50,126 bases of DNA, taken from the sequence record MZ501051, one strand, 5' to 3'. This document shows positions 2,218 through 47,616 of the stretch, piece by piece (position 1 is the first letter of the stretch; each line of letters opens with the position of its first letter). Below the pieces are notes generated by a model that did not search any database, was not told where the DNA came from, and worked only from the letters and a program-made list of their open reading frames with translations. Source of the DNA: Escherichia phage AugustePiccard. Made by a program: the position numbers and the translations under genes.

Positions 2218-2239
2218 AATCAAAACAAGAGTGGGTGTT

Positions 2240-2716
2240 ATGAATTGGGCTGAATTTTTTAGATACGAAGATGGAAATCTGGTAAGGGTTACCACAACCT
2301 CAAGTAGAGCTATTGAGGGCATGGTTGCTGGAAGCTTGTCTGGCAATGGCTATCTGCACATAAGAATAGGCGACAGGCGTGTAAAAAACCATCTCATAAT
2401 TTGGGAGATGCACAATGGAAGGATACCAGAAGGGATGGAGATAGATCATATCAATCACATAAAGACAGATAACAGGATCGAGAATTTAAGGCTCGTAAGT
2501 CACAAACAGAACCTATCAAACGCATCTCTTAGGTCAGACTCGTCAACTGGTGCGAGTGGCGTTAGTTGGAACAGAAACAGGCAGAAGTGGCACGCTTATA
2601 TAAAGTCTAACTACAAGAGGATGCACATAGGATTTTTTGATTCCTTTGATGATGCCGTAGCAGCAAGAAAGAAAAAGGAGATTGAATTGGGATTTCATGA
2701 GAATCACGGAAAATAG
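2240..2716 (+). CDS. HNH homing endonuclease with AP2-like DNA-binding domain (copy 1)
   Basis: Motif IDHINHIKTDNRIENLR plus SGVSW..W.AYI; starts MNW like copies 2 and 3 (track ORF begins at GTG 2231). Confidence 0.8.
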   Translation: MNWAEFFRYEDGNLVRVTTTSSRAIEGMVAGSLSGNGYLHIRIGDRRVKNHLIIWEMHNGRIPEGMEIDHINHIKTDNRIENLRLVSHKQNLSNASLRSDSSTGASGVSWNRNRQKWHAYIKSNYKRMHIGFFDSFDDAVAARKKKEIELGFHENHGK

Positions 2717-6243: not shown

Positions 6244-7533
6244 ATGAACTTTTTAGATTTAGTCAGAAAGCAATACGATAGCGGAAAGGTTAGTCTTTCA
6301 GGAGTAAAGGTTAGCACTGACTTCACAACCACTTCATTAATTCAAGCAGCAACGACAATAGCTAACCCAGTCACTCACACCCGCAAGGATGAAACTAAAT
6401 TTAAGTTTACCACTTACGGGCTGGCTGATGTTTCCGGCGGCTCCTATACTGGGCAGTCGCCAAATGGCGTGCAAATGAAAATTGAGTTCATGACTGACGC
6501 GCTTGTCTTTGAGTTCAAGACTATCGGCTCTATCGGTACGTACTCTGTATTTGTTGATGGAGAGCTAACCAATATTGATGCAATCTCAACTCCTAACGGT
6601 CAAGCCGTTACTTACGTAAGAACCGAAGCCTCAGATGGCGTAATTAAGAGAATGAGACACGTCGAGATTTATGGGGTGAACACTTCATTCGGCGGGTTGT
6701 TTACCGACGCTGCGGATACGGTAACCAGCGAAATCACCATCGATCCAAAACCTTTTATCTACCAGATGGGTGACAGTTACACGTACGGCACTGGCGCAGG
6801 CTACGTAACTCAGGCATACGGCTCATCCCCAGCGATTAACGATTTCTACGTGTTCAGAAATGCGCTAGGCATGGACGGCATCGCGGAAGGTATCGGTGGT
6901 AGCGGATGGAACAGCACGGGCGGGCAAGTTCCGGCCTCAAGGTTGCAAAACAGACTGCTTAAGATGAATCGCAAGCCAGATGTTGTTAGTTTCGCTCTCG
7001 CATACAATGACGCTGCGGCTATTAACACTGGAACTAACGCAAGCAAACTAGTTACCTCGATGGGTGACGCGCTAAAGGTTGTCCGAGATGCAATGCCTGG
7101 CGTTCCTGTTATTCATGTTAGCTGTGCCACGCCAAAAGGAATCACCACGCAAATTCAGAGAGTCATAGACCTTACTCATGATTTTTGCGCAAGAAATGAC
7201 ATTCCCGTGATTGGGATTAGTAACTACGTGACTGCGGCGAACAGCATTTCATACACTGGAACGGATAACGTCCACCCAAACCCTCTGGGGCACGAATTCC
7301 GCGGTTTAGCTATGGCAAGGGAGTCATTAATGGCGGCGCTGGAAGGTCGTAGCCTGGTGCCAGAAATCAAACCCAGCGGTTTCACTGTAACTTACATTGA
7401 GCGACTCCGCTTCGCGGTTGATGTTAAGCGTGAGGTTGTTCAAGCTAAAACCGCAGATGAGGCATACTGGATGGTTAAATCTCGGGAGTACAGCAATCCA
7501 GACTTGAGAATCGAAATCATTTCTGTAGCATAA
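6244..7533 (+). CDS. SGNH/GDSL-family hydrolase (esterase) domain protein
   Basis: GDS block [11 protein letters not shown] and catalytic DxxH block [12 protein letters not shown] in the C-terminal half; flanked by terminators inside the head module. Confidence 0.6.
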
Positions 7534-7615: not shown

Positions 7616-9049
7616 ATGGCTAGCGAATTAAGAGCAGTAACCGCTGGGACTGCCCACGCCCTAAAGCAAAAAATCATGGAATACATTGCTGATGGTTGGC
7701 AGCCTTATGGAAGAATCCTTAACGCTGGAGCGACTAGCGTTGGTATCATCATGGCGAAAGGTACTACAGCAAGCATTAATGATGTTGATGTTATTACCGC
7801 AGATTCAAGGGCTTCTTTAGTTTCTAAGATTAACTCATCCATCGAAAATGGGTTTGAGATGTTCGGAGAGCAGGAAGTGAACGCAAGTAGATTTATCGCC
7901 TTCATGACTAAGGGTTCTCAAGGTTCATCTGGTGGCGGTGGAGAACCTGGACCAATTGGGCCTAAGGGTGAGAAGGGTGACAAGGGCGACAAGGGAGATG
8001 TTGGTGAGCGCGGACCCGCTGGCCTAGCTGGTGCGGCTGGCGCTACTGGTCCATCTGGCCCTCAAGGTTTAACTGGCCCCGCCGGCGCTAAAGGTGATAC
8101 TGGTGAGCAGGGACCAATGGGTCCAACTGGCGCTACTGGACCTAAAGGTGATACTGGCGAAACTGGTCCCGCCGGACCGCAGGGCCCAAGAGGATTGCAA
8201 GGTGAGCAGGGGGTTCCGGGCGAGGTTGGTCCTGCTGGATTGACATTCCAGGGCGCATGGGATTCTGCTGCGACATATGTGAAGGATGACACTGTAGTTT
8301 ATGATGGGTCTACTTGGTTTGCTCCAGATGCTGTAGCTGCTGGATTAGTCCCTGGAGTTGCTACTGAGTGGATTCTTTTAGCTGCGCAAGGCGCAAGGGG
8401 CGAGGATGGTCCGCAGGGTCCGGTTGGCCCTCAGGGTTTACAGGGTGCCACTGGCCCAGCGGGTCCTACTGGTGCTACTGGTGCTACAGGCCCGCAAGGC
8501 CCTAGAGGTATACAAGGTCAAACTGGCCCGGCAGGCCCAGCAGGTCCTCAGGGTGAGGCTGGTCCTCAGGGTATTCAGGGTCCGCAGGGTGTCGCTGGGC
8601 CTCAGGGATTAACTGGTCCTCAGGGTCCAAAAGGTGATAAAGGCGATGCTCCTTACACATTATTTAACTCGCAGAACGTTACATCAACATACATTGAAAT
8701 CCCTATTCCGCAAGTAACCAACACTGTACTTAGGGTTAGGCTTTCAGGTGCCAACTTTGAATATAGCGTTTTAAGCAAAGGCGGCGCCAATAGATATGTT
8801 GACTTTTACACATTCATCCCGTCATTAACTAGCTCAACGGGTAACATCTATACCGGAGGAACTACCTTGACACCAACTGGTAGCCTCTTTTTGGGTAACT
8901 CCCCCGTGGCTCTTGGATTGAGGGAGTTGACAATAACACTCAAGGAATGGGGCGACAGAACGCTAACTACAATAAAGGCGATACATCACGGCAGATCAGG
9001 TGACACAACAAGACCTTTGCAGATAACTATGTTTAGTAATAAGTATTAA
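7616..9049 (+). CDS. collagen-like (Gly-X-Y repeat) structural protein
   Basis: Two long Gly-X-Y tracts ([23 protein letters not shown]... and [20 protein letters not shown]...) between globular N- and C-terminal domains. Confidence 0.75.
7933..8643 (+). repeat. Gly-X-Y coding repeats (GGN-NNN-NNN periodicity)
   Basis: Repetitive GGT/GGC-CCN triplets inside the collagen-like gene. Confidence 0.7.
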
Positions 9050-19646: not shown

Positions 19647-22600
19647 ATGGCACAAATGATCAAAACAAACATGAGGCTTTGTGATATGGCTGAAGAGATT
19701 AAGATTTATGGTGCCAAGGGTGGTAGCCAGAAGCAGCATCAACCAGTAGAGCAGGAAGATAACCTGATTTCGTTAAACAAGGTTAAGGTTCTTTTGGCGG
19801 TTGCTGACGGAGAGGTGGATCCAAACTTCTCAATGAAGGATTTATACCTTGCTGACGTTCCAGTACAAAATCAGAATGGCACCTACAACTATGAAGGAGT
19901 TCGAGCTGAGTTCCGCTCTGGTACGCAGTATCAGGATTACATCGCTGGGCTTGACGGTGCTAACTCAGAGATTCAGGCTTCACGTGAAATCACGAACGAC
20001 ACCCCGTACATTATTGCGGTTAACAATACTCAGCTATCAGCAATTAGAGTTAAGCTATTTTGGCCTCGGCTGGTTAAGCAAGAAAGCAACGGAGACCTGA
20101 ACGGAACTACTTGCGAGTACGCAATTGACCTTTCTGTTAATGGTGGCGCTTATCAGGAATACACTCGCGGAGTTGCAAACGGGAAGACAACTACGGGTTA
20201 CGACCGCAGTATTCGTGTAAACCTTCCAGCTGAATTTGATAGCGCACTGGTTCGAATTCGCAAGATTACAGCAGATTCAACAAGTAGCACGCTGGTTAAT
20301 GGAATGCAGATTACAACCTATCAGGAAGTAATTGACGCTAAATTCCGCTACCCGCTTACTGCTCTGGTTTATGTTGAGTTCGGATCTGACCTGTTCCCTA
20401 ACGGCATCCCGACAATCTCTATAAAGAAGCGCTGGAAGTTGATTCAAGTCCCGACAAACTACGACCCGGAGACCAGGACTTACAGCGGCACATGGAATGG
20501 CCTGTTCAAAATGGCGTGGTCAAACAACCCGGCCTGGGTTCTCTATGACTTAGTGACAAATCGCCGCTACGGCCTTGACCAGCGAGAGTTGGGTGTAGAG
20601 ATTGATAAGTGGGGGCTATATGAAGCTGCGCAATTCTGTGACCAGATGGTGCCGGATGGTAAGGGTGGTATGGAGCCGCGCTACCTGTGCGATATGGTTG
20701 TGCAGAATAAAGTTGAGGCCTACACGCTAATTCGTGACATCTGCTCAATCTTCCGTGGACTGACTTTCTATGATGGCGAAAAGATTGGTATCGTGGTTGA
20801 TAAGCCTCGAAATACATCTTACATCTTCACGAATGATAACGTTGTAAACGGATTATTCAGCCGAACTTTTGCCAGTGATAAGAGCCTTTACACTACGGCA
20901 AACGTTCAGTTCGATGATGTGGAAAACAACTATCAGCAAGATGTAGAGCCGGTATTCGAGTTGGAGGCTACTCGCAGATTTGGATTCAATCCAGTCGACC
21001 TTACGGCAATCGGATGTACGCGAAGAAGTGAAGCAAACAGGCGCGGCAGATGGCTCCTGAAAACCAACCTGAGAAGCGAAACTATCAGCTTCACTACCGG
21101 GTTGGAAGGCATGATTCCGATGATTGGCGAGGTGATTGCGGTTAATGATGCCGCATGGTCTAGCAACTATCAGCTGAACCTTTCCGGTCGTATTGAGTCA
21201 GTTCAGGGATTGCAGGTTTTTACACCGTTCAAAGTTGACGCTGCGCCGGGCGACAGAATTCTTCTAAACAAGCCTGACGGAAGCCCAGAGGCAAGAACTA
21301 TTGCCAGCGTTTCGGAAGATGGTAGAACAATCAACCTTAACACTGCTTTCAGCTTTGTGGCTCAACCTGATACTGTTTTTGCAATTGATAAGGACAATCT
21401 AGCGCTTCAGCAATATGTTGTGACAGGGATTCAAAAAGCAGACTCTGACGGTTCGGATTCTTTCCAGTATACGATTACCGCAGTAGAGTATGACCCGAAC
21501 AAGTACGACGAGATTGACTACGGCGTTAACATTGCTGACCGTCCAACTTCAATTGTTGAACCTGACAGATTGTCGCCGCCTGAGAATTTAACAGTATCAA
21601 GCTACAGCAAGATTGTTCAGGGCTTATCAGTTGAGACGATGGTTATCGGATGGGATAAGGCGCCATACGCTAAAACTTACAACGTTCAATGGAGGAAAGA
21701 AAATGGCAACTGGATTAACGTACCCAGAACAGCAAGCACAGAGGTTGATATCGAGGGTATTTACGCAGGAATCTACGACGTTAGGATTCGCAGCGTATCA
21801 GATACTGAAAACGTGTCCGCCTGGTCTGGCATTGTAACCAAAAGCCTCACCGGAAAGATTGGTAAGCCACCAAAGCTGCAGGTTATAACGGCGAGTGATG
21901 ATGAGGTTTTCGGAATTCGAGTTAAATGGGGGTTTGCTGACGGATCTGGTGATACTGCTTACACTGAGCTTCAGCAAGTGGCTGATAATGGTGATGGTAC
22001 ATACAACCCAGACAGTGCTAGCCTGTTAACTTTGGTCCCATATCCTCAGTATGAATACTGGCACACGCCGATTCAACCCGGCAATGTTATATGGTATCGC
22101 GCAAGGATTATAGATAGGATTGGTAATACATCTGATTGGACGGACTTCGTCAGAGGGATGAGTACTGATGACGCTCAGAAGATCGCTGAATATATCAAGG
22201 TTGATATCGAGCAGTCTGAAGGATTTAAATACCTACAGCAGAATGCAATTGATAAAAACCAAGACATTCAGAATCAAGCTGAGGCAATAATCGAGAACGC
22301 ACTAGCAAATGACTCAGATGTAAGGCGCCAGTCTGTTAAGAATGGGAAATTTACAGCTTCAATAACCGAAAGTCTTCAGTTGATTGCTGACGAGCAGCAA
22401 GCCAGGGTAACTCAGATATCTCAGCTTGAGGCGGATTTTGACGGAAGGGTTAATTCTTTAAACACTGAACTAAGAGAGGTAATAACAACTGGTGATAGCG
22501 CTCTATCAAGATCAATTGATGATTTAAGGGTTGAGATTGACGAGAACATATCATCACAAATAACAAACATAAACACGGCTTTAGTAACAGAAGCAGAAGC

Positions 22601-23156
22601 AAGAGCCACGGCTGACACAGCTTTGTCTGCAAGGCTTGGTCAGAACGAGGCGGCACTAAACCAGAAGCTGGATGCTTTCTCTAATGCCACATCAACTGGC
22701 GTACAGTACGGAATTAGTCTTGGCCTGAAATACAACGGGCAGACTTATTCATCCGGTATGAGCATGGAGCTCGTTGGCACTGGTGGCAATGTTCGCAGTC
22801 AATTCATTTTTGACGCAAACAGATTCGCAATCAGTAACGGAATTGGTTCTGGTTCCGGTCAGTGGCAACTCCCCTTTGTTGTTGAGAATGGAAACGTAAT
22901 CATCCAAAGCGCAGTAATCGGTGATGGATCAATCAGTAACGCGAAGATTGGTAACTTCATTCAGTCCAATAACTACGTGGCAGGAAGCAGAGGTTGGAGG
23001 ATTGATAAGAGTGGTAATGCTGAGATCCGAGGAAAACTTTACGCCAACAGTGGTGAGTTCGCTTTTAACGGAACAAACAATACGGTACAGATTAACGGGA
23101 ACGGAATTACGGTAAACTTACCTGGAGGTGGTAGGGTTGTTGTAGGCACGTTTTAA
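19647..23156 (+). CDS. tail tip / host specificity protein (lambda gpJ-like central fibre)
   Basis: 1169 aa; block NPAWVLYDLVTNRRYGL is characteristic of the gpJ family; true start may be ATG 19686. Confidence 0.75.
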   Translation: MAQMIKTNMRLCDMAEEIKIYGAKGGSQKQHQPVEQEDNLISLNKVKVLLAVADGEVDPNFSMKDLYLADVPVQNQNGTYNYEGVRAEFRSGTQYQDYIAGLDGANSEIQASREITNDTPYIIAVNNTQLSAIRVKLFWPRLVKQESNGDLNGTTCEYAIDLSVNGGAYQEYTRGVANGKTTTGYDRSIRVNLPAEFDSALVRIRKITADSTSSTLVNGMQITTYQEVIDAKFRYPLTALVYVEFGSDLFPNGIPTISIKKRWKLIQVPTNYDPETRTYSGTWNGLFKMAWSNNPAWVLYDLVTNRRYGLDQRELGVEIDKWGLYEAAQFCDQMVPDGKGGMEPRYLCDMVVQNKVEAYTLIRDICSIFRGLTFYDGEKIGIVVDKPRNTSYIFTNDNVVNGLFSRTFASDKSLYTTANVQFDDVENNYQQDVEPVFELEATRRFGFNPVDLTAIGCTRRSEANRRGRWLLKTNLRSETISFTTGLEGMIPMIGEVIAVNDAAWSSNYQLNLSGRIESVQGLQVFTPFKVDAAPGDRILLNKPDGSPEARTIASVSEDGRTINLNTAFSFVAQPDTVFAIDKDNLALQQYVVTGIQKADSDGSDSFQYTITAVEYDPNKYDEIDYGVNIADRPTSIVEPDRLSPPENLTVSSYSKIVQGLSVETMVIGWDKAPYAKTYNVQWRKENGNWINVPRTASTEVDIEGIYAGIYDVRIRSVSDTENVSAWSGIVTKSLTGKIGKPPKLQVITASDDEVFGIRVKWGFADGSGDTAYTELQQVADNGDGTYNPDSASLLTLVPYPQYEYWHTPIQPGNVIWYRARIIDRIGNTSDWTDFVRGMSTDDAQKIAEYIKVDIEQSEGFKYLQQNAIDKNQDIQNQAEAIIENALANDSDVRRQSVKNGKFTASITESLQLIADEQQARVTQISQLEADFDGRVNSLNTELREVITTGDSALSRSIDDLRVEIDENISSQITNINTALVTEAEARATADTALSARLGQNEAALNQKLDAFSNATSTGVQYGISLGLKYNGQTYSSGMSMELVGTGGNVRSQFIFDANRFAISNGIGSGSGQWQLPFVVENGNVIIQSAVIGDGSISNAKIGNFIQSNNYVAGSRGWRIDKSGNAEIRGKLYANSGEFAFNGTNNTVQINGNGITVNLPGGGRVVVGTF

Positions 23157-23158
23157 AA

Positions 23159-23186
23159 CAAAAGCCCCGAAAGGGGCTTTATCTTT
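23159..23186. terminator. bidirectional terminator between convergent genes
   Basis: AGCCCC-GAAA-GGGGCT flanked by A-run and T-rich tract. Confidence 0.6.
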
Positions 23187-24120
23187 AATACATATCAGGA
23201 AGGTAAGGAAGAGGAATGCCAAGTGTAACGTCTGGCCTATTTCCAATTTCATATCTAACTATCCTTGTGCCCGTGCCGCTCCTTACATTACCACCAGACA
23301 TTACCACACCTTTGTTTCTTAGCTCCTTGTATGCAGGTATTGCTCTTGTGTTAAACCCACACCTAAGTATTGGAAAGTATGAGTTTCCTATACTCTGGTT
23401 TGAGCTCGTCAAGGTCCTGAACCCAGAAACAACAAGAGGCCTTGTTAATGTTGAAAAAGTACACTGATTGTTAGAGTTGAATATGTTTATGCCAGGCCCT
23501 GGGGTTGGAGCAACCTGCTGAAATATTATTAGATCAAGAGTTACGCTACCAGGGGTATCTCCAGTATCTTCTGTATTTATATTCGTGCAATATAGAGTTC
23601 TGTCACCATCAAACTCAACTGAGACACCTGAGTTATTCCACTTCCCAAAAGGTATTCCAGCTATTGGCATTGTATAGCTGTTTGTGAATGATACGGTTGC
23701 TGAAAATTTGCAAGTAAGAAGCCTATCCCTTGTTGTTATAGAGGCGAAATCAGTACTATCAGCAACGTATATACCTTGCCCAGTTGACGCTCTCAATACT
23801 TCCACTACAGTTCCAGAGAACTGCGTAATACGGTCATTATAAGCATTCTCCCCACCAATAGTTATCGTCCCCTGAGTATTGGTTGCTGAAAATCCATTTA
23901 TATAATAAATCTCAACCCCCCTATCAAGTTCAAAGCTATAGGCACCATTTCTTGGTAGTAAGAATTTTGATGAGCCATCGCTACCAGTTATTGGGAATGT
24001 CTTTGTAAATCCTCCGCTAGAAACGTTGAAGTTACCAGCAAAAGACAACCCCCTCATCCCTGAGGTTATCATCATTGGGTTTCTACCATCATTCAGATCT
24101 ATATATATACCTTGGGCCAT
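23185..24120 (-). CDS. hypothetical protein (possible receptor-binding or tail-associated)
   Basis: About 311 aa, convergent with J; start ATG 24120 overlaps the upstream lipoprotein stop (TAATG); Gly/Ser/Thr/Asn-rich. Confidence 0.35.
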   Translation of the reverse strand: MAQGIYIDLNDGRNPMMITSGMRGLSFAGNFNVSSGGFTKTFPITGSDGSSKFLLPRNGAYSFELDRGVEIYYINGFSATNTQGTITIGGENAYNDRITQFSGTVVEVLRASTGQGIYVADSTDFASITTRDRLLTCKFSATVSFTNSYTMPIAGIPFGKWNNSGVSVEFDGDRTLYCTNINTEDTGDTPGSVTLDLIIFQQVAPTPGPGINIFNSNNQCTFSTLTRPLVVSGFRTLTSSNQSIGNSYFPILRCGFNTRAIPAYKELRNKGVVMSGGNVRSGTGTRIVRYEIGNRPDVTLGIPLPYLPDMY

Positions 24121-24350
24121 TAATTCCACTCCTTAGAGCCATGATCACGAACAGATCCGCTAGAGCCTTTAATTCCATCGTAACGAACATCAACCTCGCC
24201 AGCCGGAACAACTACACCACCCTTCCATTTAGCTACGCATACGCCGTTAGCTTGAGTTGCACACCAACCATCCGGGCGAGGACCCGATGAACAACCTACT
24301 GTCATGATTACTACTGCGGCGATGATTGCTGATTTGATTAAGTTAGTCAT
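24120..24350 (-). CDS. small lipoprotein (Cor/Llp-like superinfection-exclusion candidate)
   Basis: 76 aa; signal peptide ending in lipobox-like ..MTVGC; own box promoter; coupled to the downstream gene. Confidence 0.5.
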
Positions 24351-24390
24351 TTTGTATTCCTTAGTAAGTTCGTTTCGTTTCGATGGAGTA

Positions 24391-24436
24391 ATAGTATCGC
24401 ATCCTTGCGATCAGTGTTTAGCAATTCGTGCTATTC
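24391..24436 (-). promoter_or_regulatory. box promoter for the Cor-like lipoprotein
   Basis: Minus strand: GAATAGCACGAATTGCTAAA, 22 nt, TACTAT, CCATCGAAACGAAACG; the box encodes the methyltransferase C-terminus N-S-T-N-C-stop. Confidence 0.6.
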
Positions 24437-25107
24437 GCCAAGAATACAGCTCTTGCAAATCCACGAGGTGTAAGGCTGCGAATTACCTTTGTCTTCTTGC
24501 TCTTGCCGCCAAGTTTCTTGTATTGGTCAGAGAAACCACCATCAACCTCCACAGGAATCGCCTCAGGCCATCTAAACCCATTACCAGACCAAATACATGT
24601 CTTTTTAGGGTATGCATCTCTTGGCTTTATTAGGTCTCTAAAAAACGGGTGTAAATCATCTTCCGGCAAATATCCACCGTACTCATATGGATGGAAAGTG
24701 TTATCAGGTTTTCGCCAAAGTGATGAAAGTACGCTGATTGGGTTTTCAATCATGTATGGCACCTCGTACTTTTCAGCCAGGTTGAAAGCAAACTTGCAAG
24801 TCTCTGCCGCCTCAATTTGAAAATTAGGATTGGCAAGACGCTTACGCTCGAAGTGTCTTGAGCCGCTCACCGCTAAATCCGTACAAGGCGGGAATGCTAA
24901 AATGAAATCAGGCTTCACATCGAAATCGAAGTCAGCATCTATCCAGGTGTTAACGTAGGTAATATTCTCATGCTCAACTTTTGCGTTTAAGTCACCGTAG
25001 CTCCCGTGGTCTGACTCATCAAAGTTGAAGCAGTAGCAAGTGTGACCAGCTTCAGCCCAATCTTTTACCGCCAGACCAGAACCATCAAATAAAGACCAGA
25101 TAACCAT
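24418..25107 (-). CDS. compact DNA (cytosine-5)-methyltransferase-like protein
   Basis: Motif I LFDGSG, motif IV FPPCT (Pro-Cys), motif VI ENP, C-terminal R.LTPRGFARA; only 229 aa, so no room for a typical target-recognition domain. Confidence 0.55.
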   Translation of the reverse strand: MVIWSLFDGSGLAVKDWAEAGHTCYCFNFDESDHGSYGDLNAKVEHENITYVNTWIDADFDFDVKPDFILAFPPCTDLAVSGSRHFERKRLANPNFQIEAAETCKFAFNLAEKYEVPYMIENPISVLSSLWRKPDNTFHPYEYGGYLPEDDLHPFFRDLIKPRDAYPKKTCIWSGNGFRWPEAIPVEVDGGFSDQYKKLGGKSKKTKVIRSLTPRGFARAVFLANSTNC

Positions 25108-25136
25108 ATTAAAACCCCTCTCGTTAAAGTGCGGCG

Positions 25137-25181
25137 ATTATACCGCGCAAAATTTATTGTTCTTTGGCAATTCGTGCCATA
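25137..25181 (-). promoter_or_regulatory. box promoter for the methyltransferase-like gene
   Basis: Minus strand: GGCACGAATTGCCAAAG, 22 nt, TATAAT, leader AACGAGAGGGG. Confidence 0.55.
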
Positions 25182-25388
25182 TCAGATTTTAAATTCTTCA
25201 TAGTTGTTGTTGATAATCAGGCAGTGATAACGGATCAATTCAATGCGTCTCTCTCCGTGATTTAAAGCATTCTCGGCGCATCTTTCCTGATACTCAGCCC
25301 AAGCCTTATCTCGGTCTATTGTTGGCTCCGTGGCGATTCTGAGGCCCTTTGGTGTGGTGATTACTACCTGATAGAGTAAGTTGCTCAT
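25182..25388 (-). CDS. hypothetical protein
   Basis: 68 aa, RBS AAGGAG. Confidence 0.45.
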   Translation of the reverse strand: MSNLLYQVVITTPKGLRIATEPTIDRDKAWAEYQERCAENALNHGERRIELIRYHCLIINNNYEEFKI

Positions 25389-25399
25389 TTCATATCTCC

Positions 25400-25669
25400 T
25401 TAATGGATATTTTCGCAGCCAGGTAGGGACTTAACATTGTAATGTCGATAAGCGAATATCAAGTTAAGGGCTTGCTCGCCTGTGCACTTAAGAGCGCCAG
25501 AGATAATCAGTGAAGACTCAGCAATGTGATTCATTAACTCATTTCTGACAGGGTCGTCATCTGCCATTAACTCTGCGTGCTTAACAAAAAGAGCGTTGTT
25601 TACCAGGATGGTCACAACCTTTTCATTGAGTTCTTTCTTCGCTTTCGCAATCTCTTTCTCGTAGTTCAT
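25400..25669 (-). CDS. hypothetical protein
   Basis: 89 aa, RBS AAGGTGG. Confidence 0.45.
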   Translation of the reverse strand: MNYEKEIAKAKKELNEKVVTILVNNALFVKHAELMADDDPVRNELMNHIAESSLIISGALKCTGEQALNLIFAYRHYNVKSLPGCENIH

Positions 25670-25670
25670 C

Positions 25671-26348
25671 TTATACCACCTTATTTTCGATTTGCATTAC
25701 GTTATTAACTGCCAGCATAACATTTCGATTCTGCTGCTGCGTTGTAACTACAAAAGACTCCATCTTAATCCGATCTAAATCTTTTTCCGCACCCTCTCGG
25801 GTTAATTGCATTACCCGGTCATGGTTATATTTTTCCAATTCCGTCAACCCCACCTTATCTTCAAGCTTCCAGCAGTACACCTGCATTTCACTATATATTT
25901 TAGAGTTTACAGCCATTTGGCCTTGCATGCTATGAATGTGGTTATCTTTCTCTTTAATGATTTTCTCGTAATGTGCCACGATGTTTAGATTTCCAACAGC
26001 TTCGATCTTTGACTCAAGTTCATGAAGCCTTCGGATTACTTTATGGCGAAGTGCGACGCTGTATCCGGTGATTAGCGTTTCGGTAAGTTCCTTGTTAAGC
26101 AAAATCTCTGATGTATAGCCACGAACGTCAGTAAGTACTTGATAATCATCATGACTCAAATCTGAGTCATCGTTATAATGTAACAATTCATCGATCATTT
26201 CTTGAGCGTCCCTCACGACGTTGCCATGTCGCTTTCCGGTTAATTCGGCAACTTCCTTTGTGCTCATCATTGCTTTTGGTTGTTCTTTGTACACTTTAAT
26301 ATTCATTTTCATCTCTCTTCTGTTTTTCATGACCCAAATCTGGATCAT
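25671..26348 (-). CDS. Rha-family phage regulatory protein (antirepressor-like)
   Basis: N-terminal block MSTKEVAELTGKRHGNVVRDAQEMI matches the Rha domain signature; coiled-coil C-terminus; start codon uncertain. Confidence 0.55.
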   Translation of the reverse strand: MIQIWVMKNRREMKMNIKVYKEQPKAMMSTKEVAELTGKRHGNVVRDAQEMIDELLHYNDDSDLSHDDYQVLTDVRGYTSEILLNKELTETLITGYSVALRHKVIRRLHELESKIEAVGNLNIVAHYEKIIKEKDNHIHSMQGQMAVNSKIYSEMQVYCWKLEDKVGLTELEKYNHDRVMQLTREGAEKDLDRIKMESFVVTTQQQNRNVMLAVNNVMQIENKVV

Positions 26349-32012: not shown

Positions 32013-32935
32013 TAGTTTAGTAGTTCGCTTGCCTTATAGATTCTCTTTCTTATTCCTGACTTGAAAAAATTATCATCATTTGGCATTACCACATCAATAT
32101 TGCGATCGTCAGCAACGGCGAGTAAATCAAGATCGTGGCGAGTACAAGCGATGCGTAACTTGTATTTTCTAAGCGCGTAAGCAACCATTTCCATGTTGTA
32201 GATGGAGTAGCAAACAAGCACGCAGCGGTTGCCAGTAGCAATGTGAACACGATAGCCGTCAATGAGATTATCGACCAGATAAGCGTAATCATCATCCTTA
32301 AAGGAACCAATAACAGAAACAGATTGGCGAGTATAATCTTTTGCAGCATAACTAACACCTCCATATTCATTGATAAACATTACATTACACATTTCTTCTG
32401 ATATGCCGTCACTATAAGCCATAAAGCACGGCACTGCGTGTATTAGTTCGCCTGATTTTGTTCTGCCAACATCAAAGCCAAACTCGCTATAGATTCCCTC
32501 GTATGTACTGAGCGGAGTTGATTCTACTCTTTCAGTCCTTTCCATTATCTCTAAGCATCTTTCGTGGTCAATCTGAGCGCCCATTTTGTAGATCTGGGTT
32601 CTTGATGCTTGCTTGTTTGCTTTAACTATAACCTCAATTGGTGTTAAGTTCAGCCAGTCACCAAGCAAATTTACTGAATCGGCGAAGGACGATCCAGTGC
32701 ACTTCATGACCCATCCTATACCGGAGTCACTCCCGCATTTCGAACAAACTGCCGCGCCATTTCCTTTTTCACTGCCTATTTCGTCGGTAAATCTGAATCT
32801 GTCAGTGCCAAAGCAGTATGGGCATGGTCCGTGCTTCTTACTTAGGTGTCTATCATTCCAACCAAGTTCCTTTGCATAAAATGATTTCCACAATCCGGCC
32901 ATCTTAGGTATAACTTCATTCTTATCGTAATTCAT
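32012..32935 (-). CDS. DNA primase (zinc-ribbon type, putative)
   Basis: N-terminal zinc-ribbon HGPCPYCFGTDRFRF...CSKCG; position beside helicase and HNH. Confidence 0.5.
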   Translation of the reverse strand: MNYDKNEVIPKMAGLWKSFYAKELGWNDRHLSKKHGPCPYCFGTDRFRFTDEIGSEKGNGAAVCSKCGSDSGIGWVMKCTGSSFADSVNLLGDWLNLTPIEVIVKANKQASRTQIYKMGAQIDHERCLEIMERTERVESTPLSTYEGIYSEFGFDVGRTKSGELIHAVPCFMAYSDGISEEMCNVMFINEYGGVSYAAKDYTRQSVSVIGSFKDDDYAYLVDNLIDGYRVHIATGNRCVLVCYSIYNMEMVAYALRKYKLRIACTRHDLDLLAVADDRNIDVVMPNDDNFFKSGIRKRIYKASELLN

Positions 32936-33411
32936 TTGCTTAACCCGTGATTTTCGTGAAAGTTGTATTTTCTCTCTGCTTCAATTCTTACTTTATACGC
33001 CTGCTCTGGAGTATCGAAGTTCCCAAGGTGTAACTGCTTACCGTCAACCTTGATGTGAGCCTTAAATTTTCCGTGATTTAGCTTTGCCACTCCACAATAA
33101 CCAGTTGTTGATAAAACGCTAAGCCTGCAATTTCTTGAGTTACCTTGATTTGTTGTTACTCTTAGGTTTTCTATTCTGTTATCTAATTTGTTATGGTTTA
33201 TATGATCAATGTAGTCGCCATTTTGAAGTTCTCCATTAAACATCTCCCACACAACTCTATGTACGTAAGTCCTAAAGCCATTAACAGACACTTTGTAATA
33301 GCCAGATGTAGATAGTGAGTTGCACTCATCGCCAACCTTAACACGTCTTGCAGTGCTAATCTTCCAATGCAATTTGCCATCTACATAGTAAAAATAATCA
33401 TGCCAGTTCAT
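32932..33411 (-). CDS. HNH homing endonuclease with AP2-like domain (copy 2)
   Basis: Motif IDHINHNKLDNRIENLR; N-terminus MNWHDYFYY paralogous to copies 1 and 3; stop overlaps primase start (ATGA). Confidence 0.8.
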   Translation of the reverse strand: MNWHDYFYYVDGKLHWKISTARRVKVGDECNSLSTSGYYKVSVNGFRTYVHRVVWEMFNGELQNGDYIDHINHNKLDNRIENLRVTTNQGNSRNCRLSVLSTTGYCGVAKLNHGKFKAHIKVDGKQLHLGNFDTPEQAYKVRIEAERKYNFHENHGLSK

Positions 33412-36526: not shown

Positions 36527-36817
36527 ATGGCTACTATCTATACTGGTAAATTCTACGAATCACGCAAAACTGGTTATGAGTATGAATTAGTAATAACCCC
36601 AGAAGGTTATGTACTTGATGATGGTGAAGGGTACGCATTCGAAGTTAGCCCGACTTACAAAGATGATTTAGAAACTGTTAAAAACGCATTTGGCGAAAAA
36701 TTTGATGTTATTGATGATGGTGATGGCTACGCATTCGAAGTTAGCCCAACCTACAAAGATGATTTAGAAACTGTTAAAAACGCATTTGGCGAAAAAATTG
36801 ATGAGGTATCAGAGTAA
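36527..36817 (+). CDS. hypothetical small acidic protein with internal 32-aa tandem duplication
   Basis: Box promoter and leader; DDG(E/D)GYAFEVSPTYKDDLETVKNAFGEK occurs twice. Confidence 0.6.
   Translation: MATIYTGKFYESRKTGYEYELVITPEGYVLDDGEGYAFEVSPTYKDDLETVKNAFGEKFDVIDDGDGYAFEVSPTYKDDLETVKNAFGEKIDEVSE
36618..36809 (+). repeat. 96-bp tandem duplication (2 copies) inside ORF 36527..36817
   Basis: Two near-identical units starting gatgatggtga(a/t)gg(g/c)tacgcattcgaagttagccc... Confidence 0.75.
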
Positions 36818-39207: not shown

Positions 39208-39693
39208 ATGAATTGGCATGATATTTTTGAATACAACGATGGCATTCTTTATCATAAAGTTAAGTTATGTATAAGAAATGATGTTAACGTTGGTGATATT
39301 GCTGGGGGGGGCGTTAGGCAAAACGGCTATCACTACGTGAATTACAAAAATAAGTTTTACAAAAGGTCAAGGGTTGTATGGGAGATGTTTAATGGAGATA
39401 TACCTGAGGGATTTGTCATTGATCACGTCAACCATGACGCGACAGATGACAGGATAGAAAACCTAGAGTGCAAGGAGCGCAGGGATAACATGGTTAATGT
39501 AAAGCTAAGGATTGATAGCTCCTCTGGTGTAACTGGTGTAGCAAGAAAGAGCGGTAATAAGTGGAGGGCATACATAACAATCATGGGTAAGCAGAAGTCC
39601 AAGAGCTTTAACACGTTTGAGGATGCTTGCGCACAGAGGATTGAATGGTCGGTAACTCATGATTTTCACCCAAATCACGGTGGAAAATACTAA
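39208..39693 (+). CDS. HNH homing endonuclease with AP2-like domain (copy 3)
   Basis: Motif IDHVNHDATDDRIENLE; N-terminus MNWHDIFEY; own box promoter. Confidence 0.75.
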   Translation: MNWHDIFEYNDGILYHKVKLCIRNDVNVGDIAGGGVRQNGYHYVNYKNKFYKRSRVVWEMFNGDIPEGFVIDHVNHDATDDRIENLECKERRDNMVNVKLRIDSSSGVTGVARKSGNKWRAYITIMGKQKSKSFNTFEDACAQRIEWSVTHDFHPNHGGKY

Positions 39694-47001: not shown

Positions 47002-47616
47002 ATGGCTAAAATCATCATTCTTAATGGACCAGCTGGAGTGGGCAAAGACACTATCGGAAACGCGTTACACTATGATTACCGATGTATACAAACAAGCTTT
47101 AAGCGTCCAATGTTTGAAATTGCCGAGTCAATCCTGGGGGCCGGGGCGTTCAGTAAGTTCATCACGGCTTATGATGACCGAGATCAGAAAGAGATGCCTC
47201 AGAGCTTCCTTGGTGGCAAGACGTGCCGCGAGTTCATGATCTGGATTAGCGAGTCGGTAGTCAAGCCGCTATTTGGCAATCAGCAGTTCGGTAAGCTAAT
47301 GAGCGAACATATCAAGCTGTGTGACGAAGGATTAACGTTCGTTTGCACTGATGGCGGTTTCGCTGATGAAGTTATCCAGCTTGTTGAAGATGGTCACGAT
47401 GTTACGCTGGTGCGACTTTTTATGGAAGGCAAGACCTTCGCAGGCGATAGCCGTAATTACATCCGAATCAAGGAATCGCACTTCCCTGATTATAAAAAGT
47501 ATCAGGAGCATAGCGTTCGCCTGGTTAATGGTGACATTGGTGGCGGCGTATTGGCGGTGGCTGAGGCTTGCGGACTAACCTCAGATTACGAATGGGTAGA
47601 CGATATTCCCTGGTAA
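47002..47616 (+). CDS. P-loop nucleotide kinase (dNMP-kinase-like)
   Basis: N-terminal P-loop IIILNGPAGVGKDT, as in phage dNMP kinases; about 200 aa. Confidence 0.5.
   Translation: MAKIIILNGPAGVGKDTIGNALHYDYRCIQTSFKRPMFEIAESILGAGAFSKFITAYDDRDQKEMPQSFLGGKTCREFMIWISESVVKPLFGNQQFGKLMSEHIKLCDEGLTFVCTDGGFADEVIQLVEDGHDVTLVRLFMEGKTFAGDSRNYIRIKESHFPDYKKYQEHSVRLVNGDIGGGVLAVAEACGLTSDYEWVDDIPW

Follow-up and report, generated by a model that had tools for sequence, protein, structure and literature searches.

A close homologue of the enzyme described here has been characterized in K42, a KarlJaspers/Bas06 strain from which mutants escaping the retron Ec86 were isolated (bioRxiv 10.1101/2023.08.16.553469; per the reference list of PMC12673091, this preprint later became Cell Rep 2024;43:114857). 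In that study, all four escape mutants carried changes that disrupted a 711-bp dcm gene or had the potential to do so, the change in two of them being a point mutation 9 bp before its start codon, and expression of the K42 Dcm was toxic only when the retron was also in the cell (bioRxiv 10.1101/2023.08.16.553469). By LC-MS, the 5mC content of the retron msDNA was high with wild-type K42 Dcm and low with an empty vector or with the C82A/E128A/K175A/K176A protein, an inactive mutant in which the two lysines were changed only jointly with the cysteine and the glutamate. In the MG1655 host, the retron was silent and msDNA 5mC was low without the phage enzyme. The target, CCWGG, was taken over from E. 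coli Dcm and not mapped, and changing either C of the CCTGG in the msDNA abolished defence. Such a Dcm was encoded by 34 of the 35 retron-sensitive phages (all from bioRxiv 10.1101/2023.08.16.553469). As a trigger of retron Ec86, the methyltransferase is a known liability to the phages that carry it.

Two further bodies of work bear on such enzymes. The BASEL paper found C5-cytosine and N6-adenine methyltransferases to be abundant in the Drexlerviridae, where they had been proposed to counter restriction; it reported no simple pattern tying these genes to restriction resistance within the family (PMC8594841). The C5-methyltransferase fold is also used by CmoX, a phage DNA cytosine C5-carboxymethyltransferase (PDB 8yf3) with 333 residues in the crystal chain, a target-recognition domain (TRD), and a GC recognition sequence. 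CmoX is marked by an SPPC motif, by an arginine at the position of M.HhaI Asn304 that contacts the carboxymethyl group, and by a neighbouring CmoA, often together with an amide ligase, CmoY (PMC12783734).

We examined the corresponding gene of Escherichia phage AugustePiccard (BASEL Bas01) in a window of 50,126 nucleotides, meaning the whole stretch of DNA that was analyzed. The gene lies on the minus strand, a point on which the preliminary description of the locus was silent. Its product is identical to QXV76161.1, deposited as "Dcm-like C5 cytosine methyltransferase" of this phage, and is 93% identical to JeanPiccard bas02_0026, which bears the same annotation. Identity to the 236-aa KarlJaspers Dcm is 60% over the full length, and C82, E128, K175, and K176 of that protein align with C75, E121, K168, and K169 here. 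The gene is thus already known: its deposited record carries the same annotation, its family is abundant among phages, and a close homologue has been studied experimentally. Set against the other Dcm-like coliphage enzymes of phrog_757, the protein falls in the same length class, has the same invariant residues, and shows no family-level difference. In our judgment the gene very probably encodes a SAM-dependent orphan DNA (cytosine-5) methyltransferase, one of a compact family borne by phages. The 5mC chemistry was shown for the K42/KarlJaspers homologue, and by analogy the AugustePiccard protein would share it.

The preliminary description had presented the protein as an unusually compact C5-cytosine methyltransferase-like enzyme. 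The class assignment is well founded, given the predicted fold discussed below, the intact Pro-Cys and ENx-Glu elements, and the match of residues 1 to 227 to positions 15 to 220 of the 247-position phrog_757 "DNA methyltransferase" profile (E = 4.9e-85). At 229 aa the protein is indeed small for a C5-methyltransferase, but this is not peculiar to the gene. A tblastn search found phrog_757 homologues in 1,577 of 50,697 phage records; their bearers infect Escherichia, Klebsiella, Salmonella, Shigella, and other hosts, belong to several phage families, and include myoviruses of 136 to 150 kb. Relatives numbered 4,682 among 90% clusters and 1,293 among 50% identity clusters. Because the relatives in the 50% clusters are almost all 200 to 260 aa long, with a family median of about 237 aa, small size is a trait of a large family. 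Among 10 longer members scanned for fusions, one carried an HNH_2 domain, one gave a weak match, and the rest gave none.

General domain models barely register this family. Pfam PF00145 (DNA_methylase) scored 15.9 bits, below its gathering threshold of 22, and only over residues 3 to 90; it reached E <= 0.01 in only 5 of 71 family members. Searches of NCBIfam and of PDB sequences, with the single protein or with the family profile, returned nothing significant, the best matches of the profile being DNMT2 (E = 0.2) and M.HaeIII (E = 0.37) in the N-terminal region only.

The motifs quoted in the preliminary description are all present. LFDGSG occupies residues 6 to 11 and contains motif I (F7-D8-G9-S10-G11); the catalytic-type Cys75 lies in AFPPCT (motif IV, F72-P73-P74-C75-T76), Glu121 lies in IENP (motif VI), and a RSLTPRGFARAVF block stands near the C terminus, where residues 209 to 222 read IRSLTPRGFARAVF. 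This block follows the pattern Arg210-Ser211-x-Thr-Pro-Arg-Gly-Phe-Ala and is succeeded by a helix at 215 to 226. In comparison with the canonical type II C5-methyltransferases (M.HhaI, of 327 aa, M.HaeIII, and E. coli Dcm/M.EcoRII), the phage protein is about 100 residues shorter than M.HhaI, has PCT in place of PCQ in motif IV, and lacks both the small/TRD domain and a recognizable motif IX. The place of motif VIII is taken by Y166-P-K168-K169-T170, with Lys-Lys where the canonical enzymes have Arg-x-Arg (Q-x-R-x-R).

Conservation was counted in 71 diverse family members that are 34 to 73% identical to the query. Cys75, Glu121, and Pro123 are each present in 71 of 71, and Gly82, Pro140, Tyr166, Trp173, and Pro181 are also invariant. 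Conservation of at least 90% was found for Phe72, Pro73 (67/71), Thr76 (65/71), Asn122 (69/71), Arg132, Phe138, Asp164, Lys168 (70/71), Thr170, Arg210 (68/71), Ser211, Pro214, and Gly216, and 47 of the 71 have K or R at position 169. The PCT of motif IV, pointed out before, is confirmed. Motif I is degenerate, with F or Y at position 7 in 66 members, D8 in 60, and G11 in 59, and with Gly at position 9 in only 9. The lowest column entropies fall in residues 124 to 147 (1.56 bits) and 166 to 176 (1.35 bits), and the most variable segments are 31 to 67 and 177 to 199; entropy is 2.55 bits for the latter versus 1.94 bits for residues 200 to 229. Since the catalytic residues are invariant across these sequences, the comparison argues for an active enzyme.

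Structure prediction, one of the checks proposed in the preliminary description, gave a confident answer. An AlphaFold2 model computed from the 71 diverse members had a mean pLDDT of 95.0 and a pTM of 0.91, and the best 27 Foldseek matches were all DNMT3A/B catalytic domains, with E values from 1.5e-6 and query TM-scores of 0.4 to 0.54. Sequence identity to DNMT3A/B is only 12 to 13%, the DNMT3 catalytic domain is about 55 residues longer, and the phage protein has neither DNMT3-type regulatory domains nor a DNMT3L-type partner. In the model, strands at residues 2 to 6, 23 to 28, 49 to 53, and 68 to 71 lead to the Pro-Cys loop and a helical hairpin (80 to 114), followed by a strand ending in ENP (118 to 123), a short strand (136 to 138), the last core strand (170 to 175), and three short helices. 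As modelled, the protein has a class I SAM-methyltransferase fold with the catalytic-domain topology of the C5-methyltransferases.

The preliminary description had also judged the protein too short for a conventional TRD, and here the model agrees. Only 54 residues separate the end of the last core strand from the C terminus, whereas in M.HhaI the corresponding strand is followed by about 150 residues. Because of this, a separate TRD between motifs VIII and IX does not fit into the predicted structure. The limit is common to the 71 members, in which the stretch from Trp173 to Arg210 spans 28 to 48 residues (median, 36) and that from Arg210 to the end has a median of 21. The 54 residues comprise the variable stretch 177 to 199, a Lys-rich LGGKSKKTKVIRS loop with a helix, and the C-terminal helix; K or R occupies 8 of the 36 positions within residues 176 to 211. 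The family would represent a natural minimal C5-methyltransferase.

Sequence-profile alignment reached less far. Against the DNMT3A catalytic domain, for which an approximate sequence was used, hhalign gave an E value of 1e-4 and a probability of 58% over motifs I to IV only, pairing SLFDG in both proteins (motif I) and PCTDLA with PCNDLS (motif IV). Against M.HhaI, whose query sequence matches a database protein at 100%, it aligned motifs IV to VII only, at very low probability, with WRKPDNTFHPY opposite NELDYSFHAK. A profile of 30 M.HhaI relatives, which at 71 to 100% identity was too narrow, yielded 22 aligned columns. For motifs IX and X, no residue-level match was obtained by hhalign, by a forced global alignment (unreliable), or with the M.HhaI-family profile, and the attempt to align the region of Arg210, which precedes the C-terminal helix, to M.HhaI Asn304 failed.

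The preliminary description had suggested that the C5-methyltransferase fold might serve another cytosine modification, which could be carboxymethylation from Cx-SAM in the manner of CmoX or a hypermodification step linked to the dNMP-kinase-like gene that it had listed. Where CmoX is marked by SPPC and by an arginine at the Asn304 position, the phage protein has FPPC and a near-invariant Arg210-Ser211 just before the C-terminal helix. E. coli CmoA supplies Cx-SAM (PMC12783734). However, the 60%-identical homologue gives 5mC by LC-MS. Neither CmoA, CmoY, TET, a glycosyltransferase, nor a restriction partner was found among the scanned ORFs of at least 200 aa or by synteny with annotated relatives; the scanned ORFs match PHROG or Pfam families of other function, and the rest correspond to genes of other function in the annotated relatives. 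In addition, DNMT3A/B, which are SAM-dependent, carry the same Arg-Ser before the last helix (the GRSW motif, motif X). As for the dNMP-kinase-like gene, 22 kb separate it from the methyltransferase, and KarlJaspers likewise shows no linkage between the two. Because the homologue makes 5mC, CmoA is missing from the gene inventory, and DNMT3A/B combine Arg-Ser with SAM, carboxymethylation is unlikely, and we consider transfer of any group other than methyl very improbable.

We give slightly less credence again to a DNMT2-type RNA (tRNA) cytosine-5 methyltransferase or a DNA-binding protein that has no catalytic activity. Higher scores went to DNMT3A/B and bacterial DNA methyltransferases, and mutation of the catalytic residues in the msDNA-methylating homologue abolishes its phenotype. 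Against an idle protein, moreover, neither the catalytic Cys nor the Glu varies among the 71 diverse members.

For the preferred reading, a DNA (cytosine-5) methyltransferase, the fold together with the invariant residues suggests a mechanism. Cys75 in motif IV (PPC) would attack C6 of a flipped-out cytosine through its thiolate, Glu121 in motif VI (ENP) would contact N3/N4, and Lys168 and Lys169 may stand in for the motif VIII arginines. The methyl donor would be SAM, for which the degenerate motif I (F-D-G-x-G), an acidic residue that follows strand 2, and Arg210-Ser211 with the C-terminal helix presumably form the binding site. The enzyme would amount to a seven-strand catalytic domain alone, with its 54 C-terminal residues replacing the TRD and motifs IX and X. 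Since there is no TRD, DNA recognition would have to rest on short loops, plausibly the Lys-rich 200 to 211 segment and the conserved 125 to 147 block; DNMT3A/B, the closest solved structures, likewise recognize DNA through short loops. The variable stretch 177 to 199 and the Lys-rich 200 to 211 loop appear to be the likeliest stand-ins for a TRD. Methylation of the phage DNA after replication would blunt 5mC-sensitive restriction, at the probable price of exposure to methylation-sensing defences.

By analogy with E. coli Dcm the target sequence would be CCWGG, and our literature search found no mapped target motif for any member of the family. It is conceivable, although we are inclined to doubt it, that the protein is a C5-methyltransferase but no true Dcm; it would then be a protective methylase of relaxed specificity whose target is not the inner C of CCWGG but a shorter or different motif, such as CC, CCW, or the outer C. 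The lack of room for a TRD points this way, as do the borrowed rather than mapped CCWGG of the retron study and the loss of defence there when either C of the CCTGG was changed. MG1655 is itself dcm+. Its low msDNA 5mC and silent retron in the absence of the phage enzyme indicate that the latter may differ from host Dcm in dose or specificity, and they are easier to understand if it marks other sites than host Dcm does; the gap could, however, be one of dosage, with the phage enzyme over-expressed. A short target would have precedents in CmoX and in the phage C5-methyltransferases that partner with TET, which read 2-bp GC motifs (PMC12783734; see also PMC8256090). On the other side, phages with the gene, K42 among them, were isolated on an McrBC+ K-12 strain, MG1655, where broad methylation should be costly. 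McrBC cleaves R-5mC sites, and C-5mC-WGG is no McrBC substrate; such an isolation host argues against indiscriminate methylation. For CCWGG, the window had an observed/expected ratio of 0.70; the values for JeanPiccard, KarlJaspers, and Rtp, the last of which is without the gene, were 0.80, 1.03, and 0.78, and these frequencies say nothing either way on specificity.

A related proposal, tentative and in our view rather unlikely, is that this TRD-less family reads DNA through its short loops, perhaps as a DNMT3-like dimer, and that its real target is not the inner cytosine of CCWGG. If true, a non-CCWGG target would explain why the chromosomal Dcm of K-12 leaves retron Ec86 silent but the phage enzyme fires it, and the 230-aa proteins would stand as the minimal DNA C5-methyltransferases found in nature, with value as a scaffold.

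The surroundings of the gene are consistent with an orphan methyltransferase. The AugustePiccard genome aligns end to end with those of the Rtp-like Drexlerviridae (Braunvirinae) JeanPiccard, BEK2/3, RobRod40, and Rtp, at about 86% nucleotide identity over about 70% of the length. The methyltransferase belongs to a minus-strand string that runs from an Ant-like gene through two small ORFs, the methyltransferase, a lipoprotein gene, and the gene for a 314-aa protein to a terminator (Table 1). The rtp44/rtp45 region, to which the last two genes correspond, is regarded in the BASEL paper as the bona fide receptor-binding-protein locus (PMC8594841). A variable accessory slot (region 23185..26348, minus strand), which measures about 2.4 kb in AugustePiccard, separates the rtp45-like lipoprotein gene from the rtp46 homologue. 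In Rtp the slot is empty: rtp45 and rtp46 are just 342 bp apart, and a methyltransferase homologue is absent. In JeanPiccard the methyltransferase is the sole gene in the slot, and there, as in AugustePiccard, it adjoins the receptor-binding-protein/lipoprotein locus that lies downstream of the J-like gene for the tail; in KarlJaspers the methyltransferase copy is elsewhere, near a helicase gene. Because the content of the slot and the position of the gene vary among these phages, the methyltransferase behaves as a stand-alone accessory ("orphan") gene.

Table 1. Coordinates of the methyltransferase gene, its parts, and other features of the window
Feature	Coordinates	Strand	Remarks
Methyltransferase CDS	24418..25107	-	ATG start; 229 aa; compact DNA (cytosine-5) methyltransferase, putative
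Shine-Dalgarno-like GAGAGGGG	25115..25122	-	7 nt 5' of the ATG; read from sequence
Codons 125-175 of methyltransferase	24582..24735	-	Best-conserved family-specific block, SVLSSLWRKPDNTFHPYEYGGYLP ... RDAYPKKTCIWSG; motif VII/VIII-equivalent region and last core strand
Codons 176-229 of methyltransferase	24421..24582	-	54 residues in place of TRD and motifs IX and X
Ant-like protein	25671..26348	-	
Small ORFs (two)	25182..25388, 25400..25669	-	No PHROG match
76-aa lipoprotein	24120..24350	-	rtp45 homologue
314-aa protein	23185..24129	-	rtp44 homologue
Bidirectional hairpin terminator	23161..23180	.	Terminator scan; 8-bp stem, 5 G-C pairs, T-runs on both strands
dNMP-kinase-like gene	47002..47616	+	204 aa; phrog_139 "deoxynucleoside monophosphate kinase," E = 1.3e-37
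429-aa protein, GDSL lipase/acylhydrolase domain	6244..7533	+	phrog_9703 "head decoration"
477-aa collagen-repeat protein with DUF1737	7616..9049	+	phrog_5073 "tail fiber"
HNH_3 homing-endonuclease family ORF	2231..2716	+	phrog_99
HNH_3 homing-endonuclease family ORF	32932..33411	-	phrog_99
HNH_3 homing-endonuclease family ORF	39208..39693	+	phrog_99

The terminator closes both the plus-strand J-like tail gene (19647..23156) and the minus-strand accessory string that includes the methyltransferase. A promoter scan around the methyltransferase gene performed no better than on shuffled sequence. The 74 nt of intergenic DNA immediately before its start contain a G+C-rich hairpin at 25129..25148, GTGCGGCG-ATTATA-CCGCGC on the plus strand, the loop of which reads TATAAT on the minus strand; this hairpin may serve as a promoter element or have a regulatory role.

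The dNMP-kinase-like gene mentioned in the preliminary description does exist, as its PHROG match attests; in Pfam, its product has sub-threshold P-loop matches only. The corresponding region of KarlJaspers encodes a 201-aa "putative P-loop NTPase protein," which is similar to the 204-aa product here in size and position. A functional tie between this gene and the methyltransferase was considered and rejected, on account of their distance, their non-adjacency in KarlJaspers, and the fact that post-replicative methylation needs no such kinase.

The C5-methyltransferase seems to be the only DNA methyltransferase of the window, because the window holds no homologue of the KarlJaspers Dam or of the small N6-adenine methyltransferase of JeanPiccard, and a (D/N/S)PP(Y/F/W) motif is absent from its stop-to-stop frames of at least 100 codons. 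With this as possibly its sole DNA methyltransferase, Bas01 offers a clean system for asking what the enzyme does. Bas01 is subject to defence by retrons Asa1 and Squ1, whose trigger in Bas51 is an N6-adenine methyltransferase (PMC12548924); if Bas01 is without such an enzyme, that trigger would not account for the defence against it. The sequence GATC is strongly depleted in the window, with 77 sites versus about 234 expected (observed/expected, 0.33). The same ratio is 0.28 in JeanPiccard, 0.35 in Rtp, and 1.00 in KarlJaspers, which encodes a Dam-like methyltransferase.

Several other features of the window were noted. Two extra large ORFs, for the GDSL-domain and collagen-repeat proteins, stand in the head module between the gene for a 168-aa protein and the major capsid gene, where JeanPiccard and Rtp do not have them. 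The three HNH_3 ORFs are scattered over the terminase, primase, and exonuclease regions. Finally, the stretch 36655..36795, which lies downstream of the region of the VRR-NUC-like gene, contains a direct repeat whose copies match exactly over at least 45 nt; they begin at 36655 and 36751, at a spacing of 96 nt.
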